Source of the DNA: TPA_inf: Saccharomyces
Lineage: Eukaryota
NCBI GenBank assembly: GCA_000146045.2
Contig: BK006938.2
Coordinates: 384,001-448,000, forward strand
Reading direction: 5' to 3'
DNA length: 64,000 nt
Under the pieces are notes generated by a model that saw only the letters and a list, made by a program, of their open reading frames with translations, ran no database searches and had not been told where the DNA came from. The translations under genes and the position numbers were made by a program. This document shows, one piece after another, positions 1 to 8,057 of this stretch (positions are counted from its first letter, which is position 1; each line of letters opens with the position of its first letter).

Positions 1-600
1 GTCAACTGAAGTAGCAACGTCACTTGAGCTAGTTAGATCTGTTGATGTGGTTACCTCGTCAGAGCTTCTTGTACGATACATAGCCGCTAAACTTGATGAG
101 GCGTGTGGATCATCCGATGTAGTATACTCAATTGAAGATGTAGAGTCTGTGGAAGTAGAAATGGTAACAGAGCTACTTGGATCAGCTGGGCTAGTTTGAA
201 CGGCCGAAGTAGTTGAATCAGCTGGAGTAGTTGGGTTAATTGAAGTAGTCACAGCATTTGAACTAGTTGGGTCTGCTGAACTTGAACTGATAACAGAGCT
301 ACTTAGATCAGCTGAACTTGAACTGACTACGGAAGTAGTTGGATCAGCTGAAGTAGTTTGAACGGTCGAGGTAGTTGGGTCAGCTGAAGTAGTTGGGTCA
401 ACTGAAGTAGTTGGATCAACTGAAGTAGAACTGACTATAGAACTAGTTGGGTCAACTGAAGTAGTTGGATCAACAGAAGTAGTTTGAACGGTCGAGGTAG
501 TTGGATCAGCTGAAGTATTTGGGTCAACTGAAGTAGTTGGGTCAACTGAAGTAGTCACAGCGCTTGAACTAGTTGGGTCTTCTGAACTTGAACTTACTAC
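1..600 (-). CDS. Partial Ser/Thr-rich ORF, open to the window edge and in frame directly after the BSC1 TAA stop. Corresponds to the YDL038C/PRM7-type mucin-like region
   Basis: I checked every minus-strand codon from 600 down to 1 and found no stop. It encodes S/T/V/D-rich repeats like the BSC1 C-terminus, with imperfect 18-bp repeat units (gtagttgggtcaactgaa). Confidence 0.5.
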
Positions 601-1587
601 TTAAGTGGTTGGATCAACAGAAGTAGTTTGAATGGTTGAACTGGTTACATCGCTTGAACTACTAGAGTCACTTGAAGTGAAACTGCTGAAAGGACTAGTT
701 GAAGCTGCTAATGTGGTGACATCAGTAGATGTTCTTGAACGATAAATATCGGCTACGCTTGATGAAGTATGTGAGTCAACGGAAGTAGTAAAATCAATGG
801 ATGTAGTGGAAGAGCTTTTCACAGTAGATGACGTAGTAGTGGAAGTTTTCGTAGAGGATGAAGTAGTAGAGGATGAAGTAGTAGAGGATGAAGTAGTAGA
901 GGATGAAGTAGTAGAGGATGAAGTAGTAGAGGATGAAGTAGTAGAGGATGAAGTAGTAGAGGATGAAGTAGTAGAGGATGAAGTAGTAGAGGATGAAGTA
1001 GTAGAGGATGAAGTAGTAGAGGATGAAGTAGTAGTGGATGAAGTAGTAGTGGATGAAGTAGTAGTGGATGAAGTAGTAATGGATGAAGTAGTAATGGATG
1101 AAGACGAGGCTTTTGTACAAGTGCCATCATTGTTTCCCTTGCACTGGTAGGTCCAATAAAATCCAGGGAAATCCGTTTGTGAGTGGCCTTGATTGTCATA
1201 ATTGTTACAACCTGTCGATAAATCGAAGGTGGTTGTCCCCCATTGCCAAGTTTGCCAGTACTGAGCAGCATCACCTTGTAGATATTCGAACTGGATTTGG
1301 AAATTTGGCATCCAAACTGTGCAACCGTCAGAAGAAGGGTAAGCATAAACCTGAAAAGTGGATGTAAAATCTGTTGGATCACTGATTAGGTATGTCTTCT
1401 CATTTTTGCCGTAAAGTTGTACGGTGCTTGAGGGACCGTTGACACCAATAATCTTTAAAGACCATAAATATTTCAAAGGGATATCTTTTACGGCTTTGAC
1501 ATGAATAGTAATCTGGTATGTGTTATCCTTGACCCATGATACGGAAGTAACATCCATATCATAATGTAGTATATTCTGTTGGCTCAT
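601..1587 (-). CDS. BSC1: BSC1 (YDL037C), a flocculin/Flo11-like Ser/Thr-rich cell-surface protein. The ORF ends at a TAA (603..601) and the frame stays open past it
   Basis: 328 codons from ATG (plus-strand cat at 1585-1587) to TAA. N-terminal globular part, then (TTSSS)n low-complexity tail. Gene order matches chromosome IV. Confidence 0.7.
   Translation of the reverse strand: MSQQNILHYDMDVTSVSWVKDNTYQITIHVKAVKDIPLKYLWSLKIIGVNGPSSTVQLYGKNEKTYLISDPTDFTSTFQVYAYPSSDGCTVWMPNFQIQFEYLQGDAAQYWQTWQWGTTTFDLSTGCNNYDNQGHSQTDFPGFYWTYQCKGNNDGTCTKASSSSITTSSITTSSTTTSSTTTSSTTTSSSTTSSSTTSSSTTSSSTTSSSTTSSSTTSSSTTSSSTTSSSTTSSSTTSSSTTSSSTKTSTTTSSTVKSSSTTSIDFTTSVDSHTSSSVADIYRSRTSTDVTTLAASTSPFSSFTSSDSSSSSDVTSSTIQTTSVDPTT
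830..1100. repeat. 15-bp coding minisatellite (gaggatgaagtagta)n, about 16 copies with variants. Encodes (TTSSS)n on the minus strand
   Basis: Direct tandem repetition visible in the sequence. It generates spurious ORFs in every frame. Confidence 0.9.
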
Positions 1588-3512
1588 GTGCCAGTTGAAA
1601 TCCAAATTTGGACAACCATTGATAGCAACGCTTTCGTCTCTTTTGCTTAGATCAAATGAAGGGCTCACCTTGTCATCAATTCTATCAGCAGTCGCTGAAT
1701 TTGTGAGCAAGGCCGCAAATAGGAGGCAAAATGATATTAGTAGTTTTCTTATGAATGATGTGGATACCTATTTTACACTTTTGCAACAAGGGGAGGAAAA
1801 TTGCCAAGACCATCATGACATTGGAGGAAGTGATTTGCTTCTCTTAAATATAAAATAATTAAACGATCATGGAGATGCAGCGAACTAATGTGAAAAATTT
1901 TTCTTTCCAGTAGTATCGGTTATTCTGTAAGCATAGAATCGGGTATTAGTGGCTTGTTCCGAGCTTTTTTTCTTTGCCAATAAGAAAACAAGTAAAATGC
2001 AACGTGCAAATGCTGATCTGATCTCGCCTGGGCCAGTTTTATCGTCATGTGCGCGTGTAGGCACGAAAAAAAAGAAAAGACCGCTACCTCTCCTTCTAAA
2101 ATGACAGGAGGAGAATATAAGGTTTGGCAGCCCCTTGAAAGAGCCGCAGGAACCAAAAAAAAAAGAAGGAAAGTTTATTTTTTTCTTTTTCCAAAAGACT
2201 TTTTAAGATGTTTGTCAGCAAGATAATACAGGACCTACACGACTATCAGTCACAGCCAGAGAAACGTTTGTCGTATGATGGCAAAATATTTTTCCCACAA
2301 CTTTGAAATTATTTTCAAATATGGCAGAACAGTTTAACATTTGGTTTCAAGAGGTAGCACAAGTTCTTGAATAGTATTTGTTCGCGTTAAGATGGAAGCA
2401 GGCCAAATGCCCCAATAATCTAATAACCGTATTTTCTATGCTAAAGGAGGAACGAACACTCGGTCTTGTACAGGCAGCTCTAAAAGGAAAATTTCCATCC
2501 CCCCAGGCCAAGAAAATCAGAATCATATGGCCCCCTTCCATTCTAACGGAATAGTATATCAAAGAAATAATGTTTACGTAAGCCATAGACAAGCGATATA
2601 ATCTTTTTTATCCTTAAACTAGGTGCTTCATTAAGAAAGAAGAAGAAAAGAAGAAAGTACGACAAAGACTCCCCGCTGGACAATAAACGGGGGCGGCAGG
2701 TGTTAATTCCGAATTGAAATTTAAATTTGACATAAGCAAAGTTTAAAGTTTTTTTTTTCCAGTTCTTTTTTCCCATCGTTTTTTTTTCTAGAAGCCGGGT
2801 TTTTCACCGTCAAAAAATTTCCTAAAAAAGATCTGTCAATCATTAAGTTTTGCTTTTTCGGCTTTTAAGCCATGCTTTCAGGCAAAAATTAAGATTTCTT
2901 CGTAAAGATCGGAGCCTTACGCCCAAGAAGCAACTGGCCGTAAAATTTTTTCTTCGATCGGGTGGCAAATGGAACAGAAGATCATGAGTAGAAGGAAAAG
3001 TAAACAAAGAATTGCGTCGGTCAACCGGTTGTTGCTGCGTGCTTCAGCGGGTGATAAATAAAAGATTTCCTATCTGAGTAATCGATGACACAAGCGGTCT
3101 GCGCTCGGTCGCTTCCAAGCCTTAACAAAGTTTTTACTTTATGGTTTTTAATAAATAAATAAAAAGAAACGTGGATTTGGATAGCAGAAAGCCTCGAAGA
3201 TCATTTTATCAATGAAATTTTATGGTTAACACTTTCAAGACTCCGATTTTCTCTGCTACGTGAAATTTTAGGTTGCGAAAAGAATACTACCGGGAATACT
3301 AGGAGTGTGGAAGAAAAGAAATGGAAAAGAAAAGGAGAAGTGGTCATTCTTCACATCTCATTGTCTTCCTCCTGTAAAGATTTTAGCTTTTTTATAAATT
3401 AAGATTAAGATTGTAGCGTGATGTTCTGTTACTGTCATTTTTGATTGGCCAATGACTGATTATAACAGAAGACCAGTTTTCTATGTATTATTGTCCGACA
3501 AGTCAGGAACCT

Positions 3513-5171: not shown

Positions 5172-8057
5172 TTATAATGGTCCATTTCTTAAGAAGGCTA
5201 TCAAATCTATGCCGCTACTATCACTACTATCATTATCGTTCTGCGCCTCAATTATTGGATCAGGAGTCGTACCTGGTATTGTGGGCTTGACCAGATAATT
5301 TTCAGATGCACTAGCATCTGAATAGCGTAAATTCTTATCCTCTTCAATGCTATTCTCATCATCGTTTGTGACAATATTGCTTGAAAAGAAGCTGGATTTG
5401 ACCATACTGTTAGTTGAGACGTCCTGATGTTTATCGTGACTTTTATTTTGGTTTAATGCAAATTTCAACCCGGGTAGAGAAAAATGGTCGTTATTGTACC
5501 GTATTTTCAACAATCTGTTTAACTCATCAAGATCTATTCCGCCAAGCATTGGAATATGATGAATGATCCTCCAAAACAAGGGCACTTCAACCTCTTCGGC
5601 CGTGATGTTATTAAGCATTGCCTGTAGTTCAAGTGAATTTGATGGAAGGGAGCGATCGCTACTATTCGTTTTAGTCTCATCAGATTCTGTGCGTTTATTA
5701 TCGTTTGAATCTTTGGCTGAATAGTAGTTTTCCCAGTATTCAAAATCGTCACAATTGTCATAAAAACTAAAGTGTAGTTTTAGTTCAAACAATTGTTTAA
5801 AGAAGCGTTCAACAAACCACAGTATACGCTTCAGAGGGTTTGTAGAATATTTCCAGCATTTTCTTTTCTTCCACTTACCACGATAATACCAACCTCTTTT
5901 CCCCCAATTGCTGTGACAAAACTTCAGAATTTCCTTTTCACCAAGCTCTCCTTTCAGAATATATTTTTCAATGAGATATTTTGATTCTGTTTTTGCCCAT
6001 GAATAGTTCCAAGGTTTTTCCTTGAACAGGTAAACAATGACGTCGACGAGACAACTTAATGGTCGAACGCAAGTGTCAATGTATGTCACCCACATGGTAG
6101 GCCCATGCTTTATTTCATGATTGTATTGCAACGCATCTGCAATGATGGGGAAAAGCCATATCCCAATATACGACAGTGGATAAATGAATATTGCCCTTAG
6201 ATTCTTTTGAATTTGTGCCCTACGTTTTTTCATTTGTTTGTAGGTTTGGGCTTGGAAATGCTGTTGTACGTTGGTGAAACTTGAATTTTCGCATCTGTCT
6301 GCATTATTATTCACTCTCTCCTGTGAAAATTGTTGAGACGGAGTAAATGCTTCATTAGAAAGTGTAGGAATATTATCGGCTGGATTAGTATTATTGTTAT
6401 CAACGTTATTTTTAATATTATTACTATTATTATTATTATTGTTGTTGTTGTTGTTATTGTTATTATTATTGTTATTATTATTATTGTTATTATTATTATT
6501 GTTATTATTATTATTGCTATTATTGTTATCGTTATCGTTATCGTTATTGTTGTTGTTGTCGTCGTCGTCGTTGTTACTGTTGTTGTTGATGATGCCTCCT
6601 TTTTCCTTAATGTTACTAGTTATGTCGCTGTTATCGTTCTTATTATCATACATTGCTAAAGGAGATTCTAGAGAATTTTGGCAAGAGAAAGTCTGATGTC
6701 CCAGCATTGAACTTTTTCTTGTATCCAGTCCTTCATTTTCAACACTAAAAGTAACTTTATGCTCCTTTTGCTTGGATACTAGTTCCGAAGGATTGAGTGT
6801 GATGTCATTTTCACAATCAAAAGGATTATTTCTTTCCAAATCTGGCTGTTCAGACATTGCATATTTGGACATATCGAGTGGTTTAGCACTGTTATAGTCA
6901 AGTAAGCGAACTCCACCACTTGCCGAGACATTCTCATCACTACCTGTATTTGTTTTTCTGAATAGTGTAGGTATCTCATTCGAACTCTCACCAAAATTGA
7001 AAGTTCCATTACTACTACCTGAATCGTCTGTTTCCTCATTCGGATCTATGAACGAAATGGTGAAAAAATTCTTTAAATTTCTCAAAAGATGTAGCAATGG
7101 CAATTTAAAATAGGATCTGAAATACCATTTGGCTTTTCCCCAGTGACCGAGCCCAAATAATTTTTTCTTTTCTTTCTCTTCCTCTAGTACGTTATGGTTA
7201 AAGTCTCCAATTTGCGCTTTAATTCTTTTACTTTCACTGGTAATGAAAATATAAATACTGAGGTAGACTGCAAATATGAAAATAATAATGAAATATCTGG
7301 GACCCCAGCTTAAAACAATTTTATACCAGTACGGCTTGGGTGGTAAATAGCACCATGCACTCCAAGGTTTGTAGCCACCTTGCCTGGGAGAATCGGGAAA
7401 GTTGTAGTTATTATTATCCAGTATAATAGTGGTGTCAGAATCGTCATTGAGTTTATTATAATTAATGAAGGCTAAGCTTGCTAAAATGGCAGGTACTAAT
7501 GCAGTAATTGGCCAGATATATGACCTTTTTTTGTACAAGCCACCCTCCATATTTCCCGATCTTTTATTTCGCCATTTCCAATTAGGCTTGAAGATCAAAA
7601 TAGCAAAATGTATGGCGAATATCATTATGGCCATGTCTGCACCTTCGATGGCAAAGGCCGTAAACCAACCCAAGGTATTAAAAAATGCAGGTGTTGCATA
7701 CACACTATTATTAATAAGGATAATCATGGGATAAATCATCAGAATAAAAGCTTTAAGAAAGTCGCAAATTATCAAAAATGCGATGAGATCATGTCTGAAG
7801 ACTTTTCGTCTCTTATCCATTTTAGAAAGGAAGAACATTCCGAGGCAACCGGCAATAAGGGACACGGCAGACGCAGTTATAGCTATTATTCTTAACTGCA
7901 ACAGTTGCGGAGCCGTGAATGTAGAGGTCATCCCCGGCAACCCCAGCAGCTGGTTAACCGTGGTAGTGTTAAGCTGTCGGAGAGAATCAACTCTCTTTTC
8001 TAGTAAGGATGACCCTTTCAACGCGTTTAAATTCGGGGGAAATCCCTCAGTTATCAT
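5172..8057 (-). CDS. GPR1: Glucose-sensing G-protein-coupled receptor Gpr1 (YDL035C)
   Basis: 961 aa. Hydrophobic TM helices at both ends and a huge Asn-rich third loop. Length and position match GPR1. Confidence 0.9.
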   Translation of the reverse strand: MITEGFPPNLNALKGSSLLEKRVDSLRQLNTTTVNQLLGLPGMTSTFTAPQLLQLRIIAITASAVSLIAGCLGMFFLSKMDKRRKVFRHDLIAFLIICDFLKAFILMIYPMIILINNSVYATPAFFNTLGWFTAFAIEGADMAIMIFAIHFAILIFKPNWKWRNKRSGNMEGGLYKKRSYIWPITALVPAILASLAFINYNKLNDDSDTTIILDNNNYNFPDSPRQGGYKPWSAWCYLPPKPYWYKIVLSWGPRYFIIIFIFAVYLSIYIFITSESKRIKAQIGDFNHNVLEEEKEKKKLFGLGHWGKAKWYFRSYFKLPLLHLLRNLKNFFTISFIDPNEETDDSGSSNGTFNFGESSNEIPTLFRKTNTGSDENVSASGGVRLLDYNSAKPLDMSKYAMSEQPDLERNNPFDCENDITLNPSELVSKQKEHKVTFSVENEGLDTRKSSMLGHQTFSCQNSLESPLAMYDNKNDNSDITSNIKEKGGIINNNSNNDDDDNNNNNDNDNDNNNSNNNNNNNNNNNNNNNNNNNNNNNNNNNNNNSNNIKNNVDNNNTNPADNIPTLSNEAFTPSQQFSQERVNNNADRCENSSFTNVQQHFQAQTYKQMKKRRAQIQKNLRAIFIYPLSYIGIWLFPIIADALQYNHEIKHGPTMWVTYIDTCVRPLSCLVDVIVYLFKEKPWNYSWAKTESKYLIEKYILKGELGEKEILKFCHSNWGKRGWYYRGKWKKRKCWKYSTNPLKRILWFVERFFKQLFELKLHFSFYDNCDDFEYWENYYSAKDSNDNKRTESDETKTNSSDRSLPSNSLELQAMLNNITAEEVEVPLFWRIIHHIPMLGGIDLDELNRLLKIRYNNDHFSLPGLKFALNQNKSHDKHQDVSTNSMVKSSFFSSNIVTNDDENSIEEDKNLRYSDASASENYLVKPTIPGTTPDPIIEAQNDNDSSDSSGIDLIAFLRNGPL
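6395..6600. repeat. Imperfect AAT/AAC trinucleotide tract (plus strand shows ATT/GTT) encoding the poly-Asn/Asp loop of Gpr1
   Basis: Long run of att/gtt triplets. The poly-I/V/L ORFs on the opposite strand are artefacts. Confidence 0.9.

Follow-up and report, generated by a model that had tools for sequence, protein, structure and literature searches.

The stretch of DNA analysed here, referred to below as the window, comprises 64,000 nucleotides of Saccharomyces cerevisiae chromosome IV (BK006938.2, positions 384,001 to 448,000), and its 5' end carries the genes PRM7, BSC1 and PUS9, all three of which are encoded on the minus strand. The subject of this analysis is BSC1 (YDL037C), annotated as an open reading frame (ORF) of 328 amino acids ending at the TAA at 603-601, and in particular the reading frame immediately 5' of its annotated start, where a segment with the properties of a signal peptide follows an ATA codon. 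Among the assemblies used for comparison, L012 (GCA_010356925.1) matches the window at all 51 variable columns and carries the same two gene calls of 328 and 698 amino acids, and as judged from sequence the window haplotype is the reference-type, S288C-like one.

Several properties of the locus have been described before. The stop codon of BSC1 varies between strains, and in many strains and species BSC1 and PRM7 are joined in a single gene (PMC12157680; bioRxiv 10.1101/2020.01.09.900480; bioRxiv 10.1101/2021.05.11.443680). The continuous BSC1-PRM7 ORF of strain W303 was named IMI1 (Kowalec et al. 2015, as reported by the papers citing it). Alpha-cell-specific expression and strong Tup1 occupancy were reported for the BSC1/PRM7 gene (bioRxiv 10.1101/2021.05.11.443680), and its S. 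paradoxus version was described as much larger (PMC13655127). The stop-codon polymorphism is thus already known, but in the literature searched, which did not include Kowalec et al. 2015 itself, there was no mention of a start-codon lesion, a signal peptide or a glycosylphosphatidylinositol (GPI)-type end for BSC1/IMI1.

The reading frame upstream of BSC1

On its 5' side the BSC1 frame is closed by an in-frame TAG, from which five sense codons (V S T S F) lead to the ATA, and the distance from the ATA to the annotated ATG is exactly 55 codons. After the ATA the frame continues with the 21 residues of RKLLISFCLLFAALLTNSATA, i.e., from R-K-L-L-I to T-N-S-A-T-A, followed by D-R, so that TNS|AT and ATA|DR are the candidate cleavage sites of the relic peptide. 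When the sequence was re-read, the positions and residues given by the first-pass annotation for the TAG, the ATA, the peptide and the annotated ATG at 55 codons were all correct, and no ATG was found in frame between the TAG and the ATA, as it had stated. The features of the region are collected in Table 1.

To score signal peptides, a simple rule with three conditions was used: the n-region must be basic, a stretch of 12 uncharged residues must reach a mean Kyte-Doolittle value of 2.2 or more, and positions -3 and -1 must hold small residues. The relic peptide passed this test with a mean Kyte-Doolittle value of 2.87 for its h-region, and the signal peptide of Flo11 and the orthologous peptides passed it as well, while the annotated N-terminus of BSC1 failed. 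Two further proposals of the first-pass annotation agree with these results: the upstream segment has the character of a signal peptide, the same peptide with an ATG being found at the head of the gene in other strains and species, and a product started at the annotated Met would be without a secretion signal.

The homology of the encoded protein to Flo11 also extends across the annotated start. The Pfam Flo11 match, with a score of 235.6 bits against a cut-off of 25, begins 10 residues 5' of the annotated Met. Against the crystallised Flo11A construct 4UYR, 169 residues were aligned, beginning 13 residues 5' of that Met, at AINGCPNLDFNWHM. The annotated "start" Met itself is aligned to the internal Met of NWHM in Flo11, and a Cys in the segment 1588-1686 is aligned with that of Flo11's NGCPNLDFNWHM. 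Because the homology starts 5' of the annotated Met, the annotated BSC1 corresponds to a Flo11 domain from which the first strand and a conserved Cys have been removed. With respect to the features expected of the Flo11 family, the Flo11A domain and the Ser/Thr-rich tandem-repeat stalk are both present in the window, whereas the AUG-headed signal peptide is absent from it (ATA); 11 of the 17 assemblies compared with the window and both outgroup lineages have it.

Table 1. Features of the PUS9/BSC1/PRM7 region, in the order in which they are read on the minus strand (window positions).
Feature	Position	Strand	Basis
PUS9 pseudouridine synthase ORF, 462 amino acids	3513-4901	-	ORF list
TATA-like element TATATTTA, 100 nt 5' of the ATA; putative TATA function	1845-1852	-	alignment
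Two-codon in-frame mini-ORF	1821-1813	-	ORF scan
Upstream out-of-frame ATG-ATG ORF, 43 codons, overlaps ancestral start	1685-1816	-	ORF scan
In-frame TAG closing the BSC1 frame on its 5' side	1768-1770	-	window sequence
ATA, mutated ancestral initiator ATG; context tcattcATAa, U at -3	1750-1752	-	strain and outgroup comparison
Relic signal-peptide segment, 22 codons, (M>I)RKLLISFCLLFAALLTNSATA	1687-1752	-	translation and rule test
Segment coding for the mature N-terminus, 5' of annotated Met: DRIDDKVSPSFDLSKRDESVAINGCPNLDFNWH	1588-1686	-	translation, Flo11 alignments
First downstream AUG, out of frame, M T R stop	1665-1676	-	ORF scan
Second downstream AUG, out of frame, 11 codons, stop overlaps annotated ATG	1584-1619	-	ORF scan
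Flo11 domain PF10182, profile positions 1-151 of 151	1165-1617	-	Pfam, E 3e-70; 4UYR, E 2.3e-89
Annotated BSC1 ATG, internal Met conserved in Flo11 (NWHM)	1585-1587	-	Flo11 alignments
15-bp minisatellite, 16.9 copies, 99% matches, encodes (S/T)TTSS	851-1103	-	repeat analysis
18/36/72-bp coding repeats	177-661	-	repeat analysis
TAA ending BSC1; TCA (Ser) in other strains	601-603	-	strain comparison
Same frame continued, open to the window edge, through the annotated PRM7 ATG (81-79) in frame	1-600	-	translation

Start and stop codons among strains and outgroups

The state of the upstream codon was scored in 17 S. cerevisiae-type assemblies in addition to the window, and since this is a non-random sample the resulting counts, 11 ATG and 7 ATA among the 18 sequences with the window counted, are not population frequencies. 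The ATG was found in L001, L002, L006, L007 and L013-L019, and the ATA in the window, L004 (YJM1356), L005, L012, L020, L021 and L008, the last of which is the cerevisiae subgenome of S. pastorianus; the ATA is thus common to the S288C-like haplotype, several YJM strains and that subgenome. Across 70 bases around the codon, CATGAGA versus CATAAGA was the sole difference, i.e., a G to A change on the minus strand at window position 1750 (C to T on the plus strand, where the codon reads TAT). In a protein search, many S. cerevisiae entries started with MRKLLISFCLLFAALLTNSATADR and were otherwise 99% to 100% identical to the window, including those of the ScRAP strains AIF, ATV, BTE, CPI, AMP, BBM and CGH and those of PE-2 and Vin13.

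Two divergent Saccharomyces lineages were available as outgroups, the first represented by L003, from Logan run SRR31481540, and the second by L009-L011. In L009 the gene adjoins a PUS9 orthologue with 78% identity to that of the window, which suggests that this lineage is a distant species of Saccharomyces sensu stricto. At the homologous codon both lineages have ATG, and behind it a conserved signal peptide, MKKLLITFYLLLATLLTKSVAA (MKKLLITF...), is kept in frame without indels, while the DNA 5' of the codon has diverged with indels. Since both outgroups carry ATG, the ATG is ancestral and the ATA is a derived G to A transition, which by this comparison makes it a derived loss of the start codon. 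The lesion from ATG to ATA that the first-pass annotation had proposed as the pseudogenisation of an adhesin is therefore supported by the single-base difference, by the ATG found in most strains and in two lineages once the codon was compared across strains and species as it had recommended, and by the Flo11 homology 5' of the annotated Met. Linked variants at 2135, 2094 and 1961 are common to most ATA alleles and are missing from the S. pastorianus copy, which points to recombination or recurrence in the history of that copy.

A further observation concerns the 5' flank of the codon. A 9-mer, GTATCCACA, lies on the minus strand at 1759-1767, 15 nt 5' of the ATA, and occurs once in the window; S. 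cerevisiae and both divergent lineages share it unchanged despite the diverged, indel-bearing flank, and a transcript-start region or a factor binding site could be considered as candidate roles.

The other lesion of the reference-type allele is the TAA that separates BSC1 from PRM7. At this site TCA was found in at least eight of the assemblies examined, and the TAA is thus, on the sequence comparison, a nonsense polymorphism which splits the ancestral gene into BSC1 and PRM7. Programmed stop read-through, from which the name BSC1 ("bypass of stop codon") originates, was also considered and was rejected, as the stop is not conserved and TCA stands in its place in these assemblies. All four combinations of the start and stop sites, which are 1.15 kb apart, were present among the 18 sequences: ATG with TCA in L013-L019, ATG with TAA in L001, L002, L006 and L007, ATA with TAA in the window, L004, L005, L008, L012 and L020, and ATA with TCA in L021. 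The finding of all four combinations means that the two lesions have recombined or that one of them has recurred. L021 may resemble the arrangement of IMI1 in W303.

In alleles with both sites intact the frame is long. In L015 the ORF opened by the ATG is continuous, in the same frame, with a called PRM7-type gene of 1091 amino acids, for a total of 1662 amino acids, and in L019 a product of 1600 amino acids was called from the MRKLL ATG. A protein search with the PRM7 C-terminus for full-length proteins returned two short fragments only, and the existence of intact alleles is deduced from L015 and L019. The PRM7 C-terminus lies outside the window; as read in L001 and L005 it ends in ...SLIMEGSANIEAVGKLVWLAAALPLAFI or ...EGSANIEAVGKLVWLAAALPLAFI before the stop codon, where small residues are followed by a short spacer and then a hydrophobic tail, and this end of the protein looks like a GPI-attachment signal. 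We take this C-terminus to be very like that of Flo11. On this reading the ancestral gene encoded a full Flo11-type adhesin, comprising a signal peptide, the Flo11A domain for adhesion, a long stalk of Ser/Thr-rich repeats and, at the C-terminus, a putative hydrophobic signal of the GPI type. The 15-bp repeats and the 18/36/72-bp repeats are near-perfect coding minisatellites, and no two of the strains compared had the same copy number, in line with published descriptions of the locus as one of the most structurally variable in the genome.

Additional disabling variants were noted in L013, L014, L016, L017, L018 and L021 and in the proteins P0004, P0035, P0046, P0047 and P0049. They include frameshift-type endings (...TILLLQQV, ...SSCHHFYFHRLYIFN, ...STGWKQ and ...NWHEPAEYTTL) and, in L017 and L018, early stops after 71 or 79 codons; some of these variants could be assembly errors in the repeats. 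From such sequences the adhesin gene appears to decay repeatedly within the species. In L009 the orthologue at 6001-6318 (P0063, 105 amino acids) stops after 105 codons, at ...VIGVKDRTTLR, in three independent assemblies, so that this species, or at least its sampled strains, may have a disrupted gene as well.

The truncated start of the reference annotation has been copied onto strains which still have the real ATG. In the YJM assemblies L006 (GCA_000662435.2) and L007 (GCA_000976425.2) the ATG is intact at locus position 1336 and opens a 368-amino-acid ORF from MRKLL, and the deposited protein P0008, of 313 amino acids, nevertheless starts with MSQQ. In the S. pastorianus assembly L008 (GCA_011022315.1), where the gene occupies 1501-2531, the deposited protein P0057 begins with MTRDESVAINGC; this prediction starts at the out-of-frame ATG equivalent to window position 1676 and regains the frame through an intron of about 29 nt, GTGAGC...AAAAG, which was invented because the ATA lesion pushed the predictor off the true start.

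Expected consequences and alternative explanations

We consider it probable, at about 0.85, that the window carries a decayed and essentially null gene of the Flo11 adhesin family, in which 1687-1752 is a signal-peptide segment stranded by the change of ATG to ATA. The G to A transition in the third base of the initiator removed the start codon, and a scanning ribosome would first meet the AUA in its poor context, then the out-of-frame AUGs at 1676 and 1619, and only afterwards the annotated AUG at 1587, from which little protein would be expected. Whatever was made from the annotated AUG would lack the signal peptide and the first Flo11 strand and would not be expected to enter the secretory pathway, and the ATA plus the change of TCA to TAA at 603-601 would leave the allele null for adhesin function.

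These consequences depend in part on where the transcript starts. The TATA-like TATATTTA of the window aligns with a perfect TATATAAG in both outgroup lineages. Yeast transcripts usually start 40 to 120 nt downstream of a TATA box, and given this spacing, an element 100 nt 5' of the codon means that the mRNA probably includes the codon. The two upstream ORFs that begin at 1816 and 1821 would be relevant only if transcripts start upstream of about 1820. As possible support for the alpha-specific control of BSC1, the alpha1-Mcm1 Q-box TCAATGACAG was also sought with at most one mismatch; there was no match in 1770-3512, and the count across the window was at chance level.

Published localisation data were then compared with this reading. 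Imi1 was reported as cytoplasmic in a W303-type strain when the ORF was driven by tetO and tagged with red fluorescent protein (RFP) at its C-terminus, and it was undetectable from its own promoter in W303-type cells (PMC5223379). As the construct began at the internal Met and ended with RFP, its product could be neither secreted nor anchored through GPI, and a cytoplasmic Imi1 therefore does not contradict an origin of the gene as an adhesin. The first-pass annotation had named a demonstrably cytosolic protein as evidence that would speak against a lesion; what has been reported in this direction is an overexpressed, tagged construct only.

Several observations do weigh against a simple null allele. 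Deletion of IMI1 in W303 is reported to give mitochondrial and glutathione phenotypes (PMC12157680; bioRxiv 10.1101/2020.01.09.900480; PMC5223379), which a pure null would not predict. The BSC1 mRNA was enriched with Srp54-bound ribosome-nascent-chain complexes (del Alamo et al., PMC3134442, Table 1 and Table S1), although listed there as "lacking SS or TM" (signal sequence or transmembrane segment), and it was one of 52 such mRNAs which were also membrane-associated; this listing among the targets of the signal recognition particle (SRP) hints at a signal-bearing nascent chain in laboratory strains. In addition, the signal-peptide and GPI calls made here are based on simple rules and homology. 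The SRP listing would be explained by the hidden signal peptide if the AUA initiates weakly or if the assayed strain carries the ATG. The Srp54-TAP strain came from Euroscarf and may carry either start-codon allele, and the assay was made by microarray (PMC3134442), on which the Ser/Thr repeats could possibly cross-hybridise. Many other entries of the same list are dubious ORFs, and annotation problems such as hidden signal peptides and overlap with secretory genes may explain part of this class.

These data bear on whether the initiator Met-tRNA still uses the AUA at a low level, so that S288C-type cells make some signal-bearing Bsc1, which would enter the endoplasmic reticulum and then be secreted, or be retained without a GPI anchor owing to the TAA. 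Yeast is accepted to initiate at certain near-cognate codons, AUA among them (PMC6582344, PMC5666671), the frame is open from the AUA, no AUG in any frame would precede it if transcripts start downstream of about 1811, and the SRP and membrane association of an mRNA classed as "lacking SS or TM" would be accounted for by the hidden signal peptide (PMC3134442). However, the U at -3 makes the context poor, and the SRP data are weakened by the strain allele, the dubious ORFs of the list and the possible cross-hybridisation. Near-cognate codons are said, following Clements et al. in 1988 and Kolitz et al. in 2009, to give at most a few per cent of the activity of AUG in yeast. Moreover, because the ATA is a derived polymorphism, the AUA cannot be a conserved, programmed non-AUG start; orthologues and most strains carry ATG rather than a near-cognate codon, and nothing suggests selection for the AUA. 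We thus regard it as unlikely that the AUA still starts translation at a low, physiologically meaningful level and that a Flo11-like domain lacking an anchor is secreted by the reference strain, so that near-cognate initiation, the second possibility named by the first-pass annotation, is the less probable of its two readings. If it took place, the start-codon mutation would have turned the adhesin down and not off, and the cytoplasmic Imi1 of W303 would be an artefact of expressing a truncated ORF. The view that the product from the internal AUG, Bsc1 or without the stop Imi1, has become a functional cytosolic protein, with the upstream segment serving only as 5' untranslated region, could draw on the tetO-driven Imi1-RFP, which was cytoplasmic, co-precipitated with Irr1 and was described as affecting glutathione and mitochondria (PMC5223379), and on L021, whose pairing of ATA with an open TCA means that a long ORF from the internal AUG exists in nature. 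Set against these points are the truncation of the Flo11 fold by the internal Met, the two out-of-frame AUGs which precede it, the failure to detect Imi1 from its own promoter, and a localisation construct in which the native 5' region is missing and the C-terminal signal is hidden behind RFP, while the varied disabling lesions across strains are a signature of relaxed constraint; a new cytosolic function is in our judgement distinctly improbable.

Two other explanations would deprive the upstream segment of its meaning as a stranded signal peptide altogether. According to one, an exon beginning at the ATG at 1816 is spliced from GTATCC (1767) through a branch point TACTAAT (1742-1736) to CAG (1697-1695), which would join MMVLAIFLPLLQKCKI to ATADRIDD. 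The elements are in the right order and spacing for a 73-nt intron, the frame is kept across its junction in the window and likewise across that of a 52-nt counterpart in the L009 lineage (5922-6040), the removed length being 1 modulo 3 in both, and GTATCCACA and ACTACTAAT are conserved across lineages; but GTATCC does not match the last two positions (5 and 6) of the yeast GTATGT, and a G at position 5 of the yeast 5' splice site is nearly invariant. The branch point likewise differs from the consensus TACTAAC, the would-be first exon of L003 contains a stop, ACTACTAAT merely represents the codons for K-L-L-I, splicing would remove the hydrophobic core of the conserved signal peptide, and the unspliced ORF is complete in the ATG strains and in both outgroups. 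A hidden intron was rejected on these grounds as highly improbable, and its intron-like arrangement in two lineages was judged a coincidence. The remaining explanation is that a hydrophobic stretch arose in the 5' untranslated region by accident and without evolutionary meaning. Across all six frames of the 64-kb window, 59 of 127,804 codon positions passed the signal-peptide rule (about 19 separate sites), so that such peptides do occur, and the chance of one lying in frame within about 60 codons 5' of a given ORF is roughly 1% to 3%. An accident is nevertheless refuted, and its probability practically negligible, since the same peptide is the annotated N-terminus in many strains, is conserved in frame in two lineages, and is bridged to the annotated ORF by Flo11 homology.

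The reading as a decayed adhesin gene has several implications for annotation and for earlier work. The reference annotation of BSC1 starts at a Met inside the Flo11 domain, and the lost start redefines the locus as one predicted to encode a Flo11-type surface adhesin, probably GPI-anchored and alpha-cell-specific, with a gene that some strains retain whole and that several independent lesions have disrupted in the rest. The work on cytoplasmic Imi1 would have to be re-read in light of the lost start, and a simple explanation is offered for one puzzling "SRP substrate without signal sequence". Natural alleles exist for each pairing of ATG or ATA with TCA or TAA, and these four types could be used for studying the role of the adhesin in mating or kin adhesion and the leakiness of the AUA in vivo. 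The outcome is a re-annotation and a lead, with no new mechanism, and it adds a new instance to a familiar event, the inactivation of a yeast adhesin gene by a point mutation specific to certain strains.

Comparison with known systems

The closest known system is FLO11/MUC1 (structures 4UYR, 4UYS and 4UYT), with which the ancestral BSC1/PRM7 shares the signal peptide, the A domain, the Ser/Thr repeats and a putative hydrophobic C-terminal signal. Unlike FLO11, BSC1 is a separate paralogous locus which adjoins PUS9 on chromosome IV, its repeats differ, it is reported to be alpha-cell-specific and not under FLO8/filamentation control (bioRxiv 10.1101/2021.05.11.443680), and in the window it has neither a start codon nor the C-terminal two-thirds of the gene. 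IMI1 of W303 is the same locus as BSC1-PRM7, and the IMI1 literature searched discusses only the stop codon and treats Imi1 as a cytoplasmic protein beginning at the BSC1 Met (PMC5223379).

The loss of adhesion through point mutation has a well-known parallel in S288C. This strain reportedly owes a null state of its adhesion and filamentation programme to a nonsense mutation in flo8, a finding credited to Liu, Styles and Fink in 1996. As with flo8, point mutations at BSC1 disable surface adhesion in a lineage of laboratory or domesticated strains, and wild-type alleles still segregate elsewhere in the species; unlike flo8, the lesions are a start-codon loss and a nonsense mutation in the adhesin gene itself, and they are common to non-laboratory strains and to the S. 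pastorianus subgenome. In having an in-frame targeting peptide 5' of the annotated AUG behind a near-cognate first codon, the window BSC1 resembles ALA1, GRS1 and the genes found in the screen of Monteuuis et al. 2019 (PMC6582344). The key difference is that in genes of the ALA1/GRS1 type the non-AUG codon is conserved and selected and the form started at the AUG is functional, whereas in BSC1 the near-cognate codon arose recently from an AUG by mutation, and the downstream AUG yields a truncated domain.

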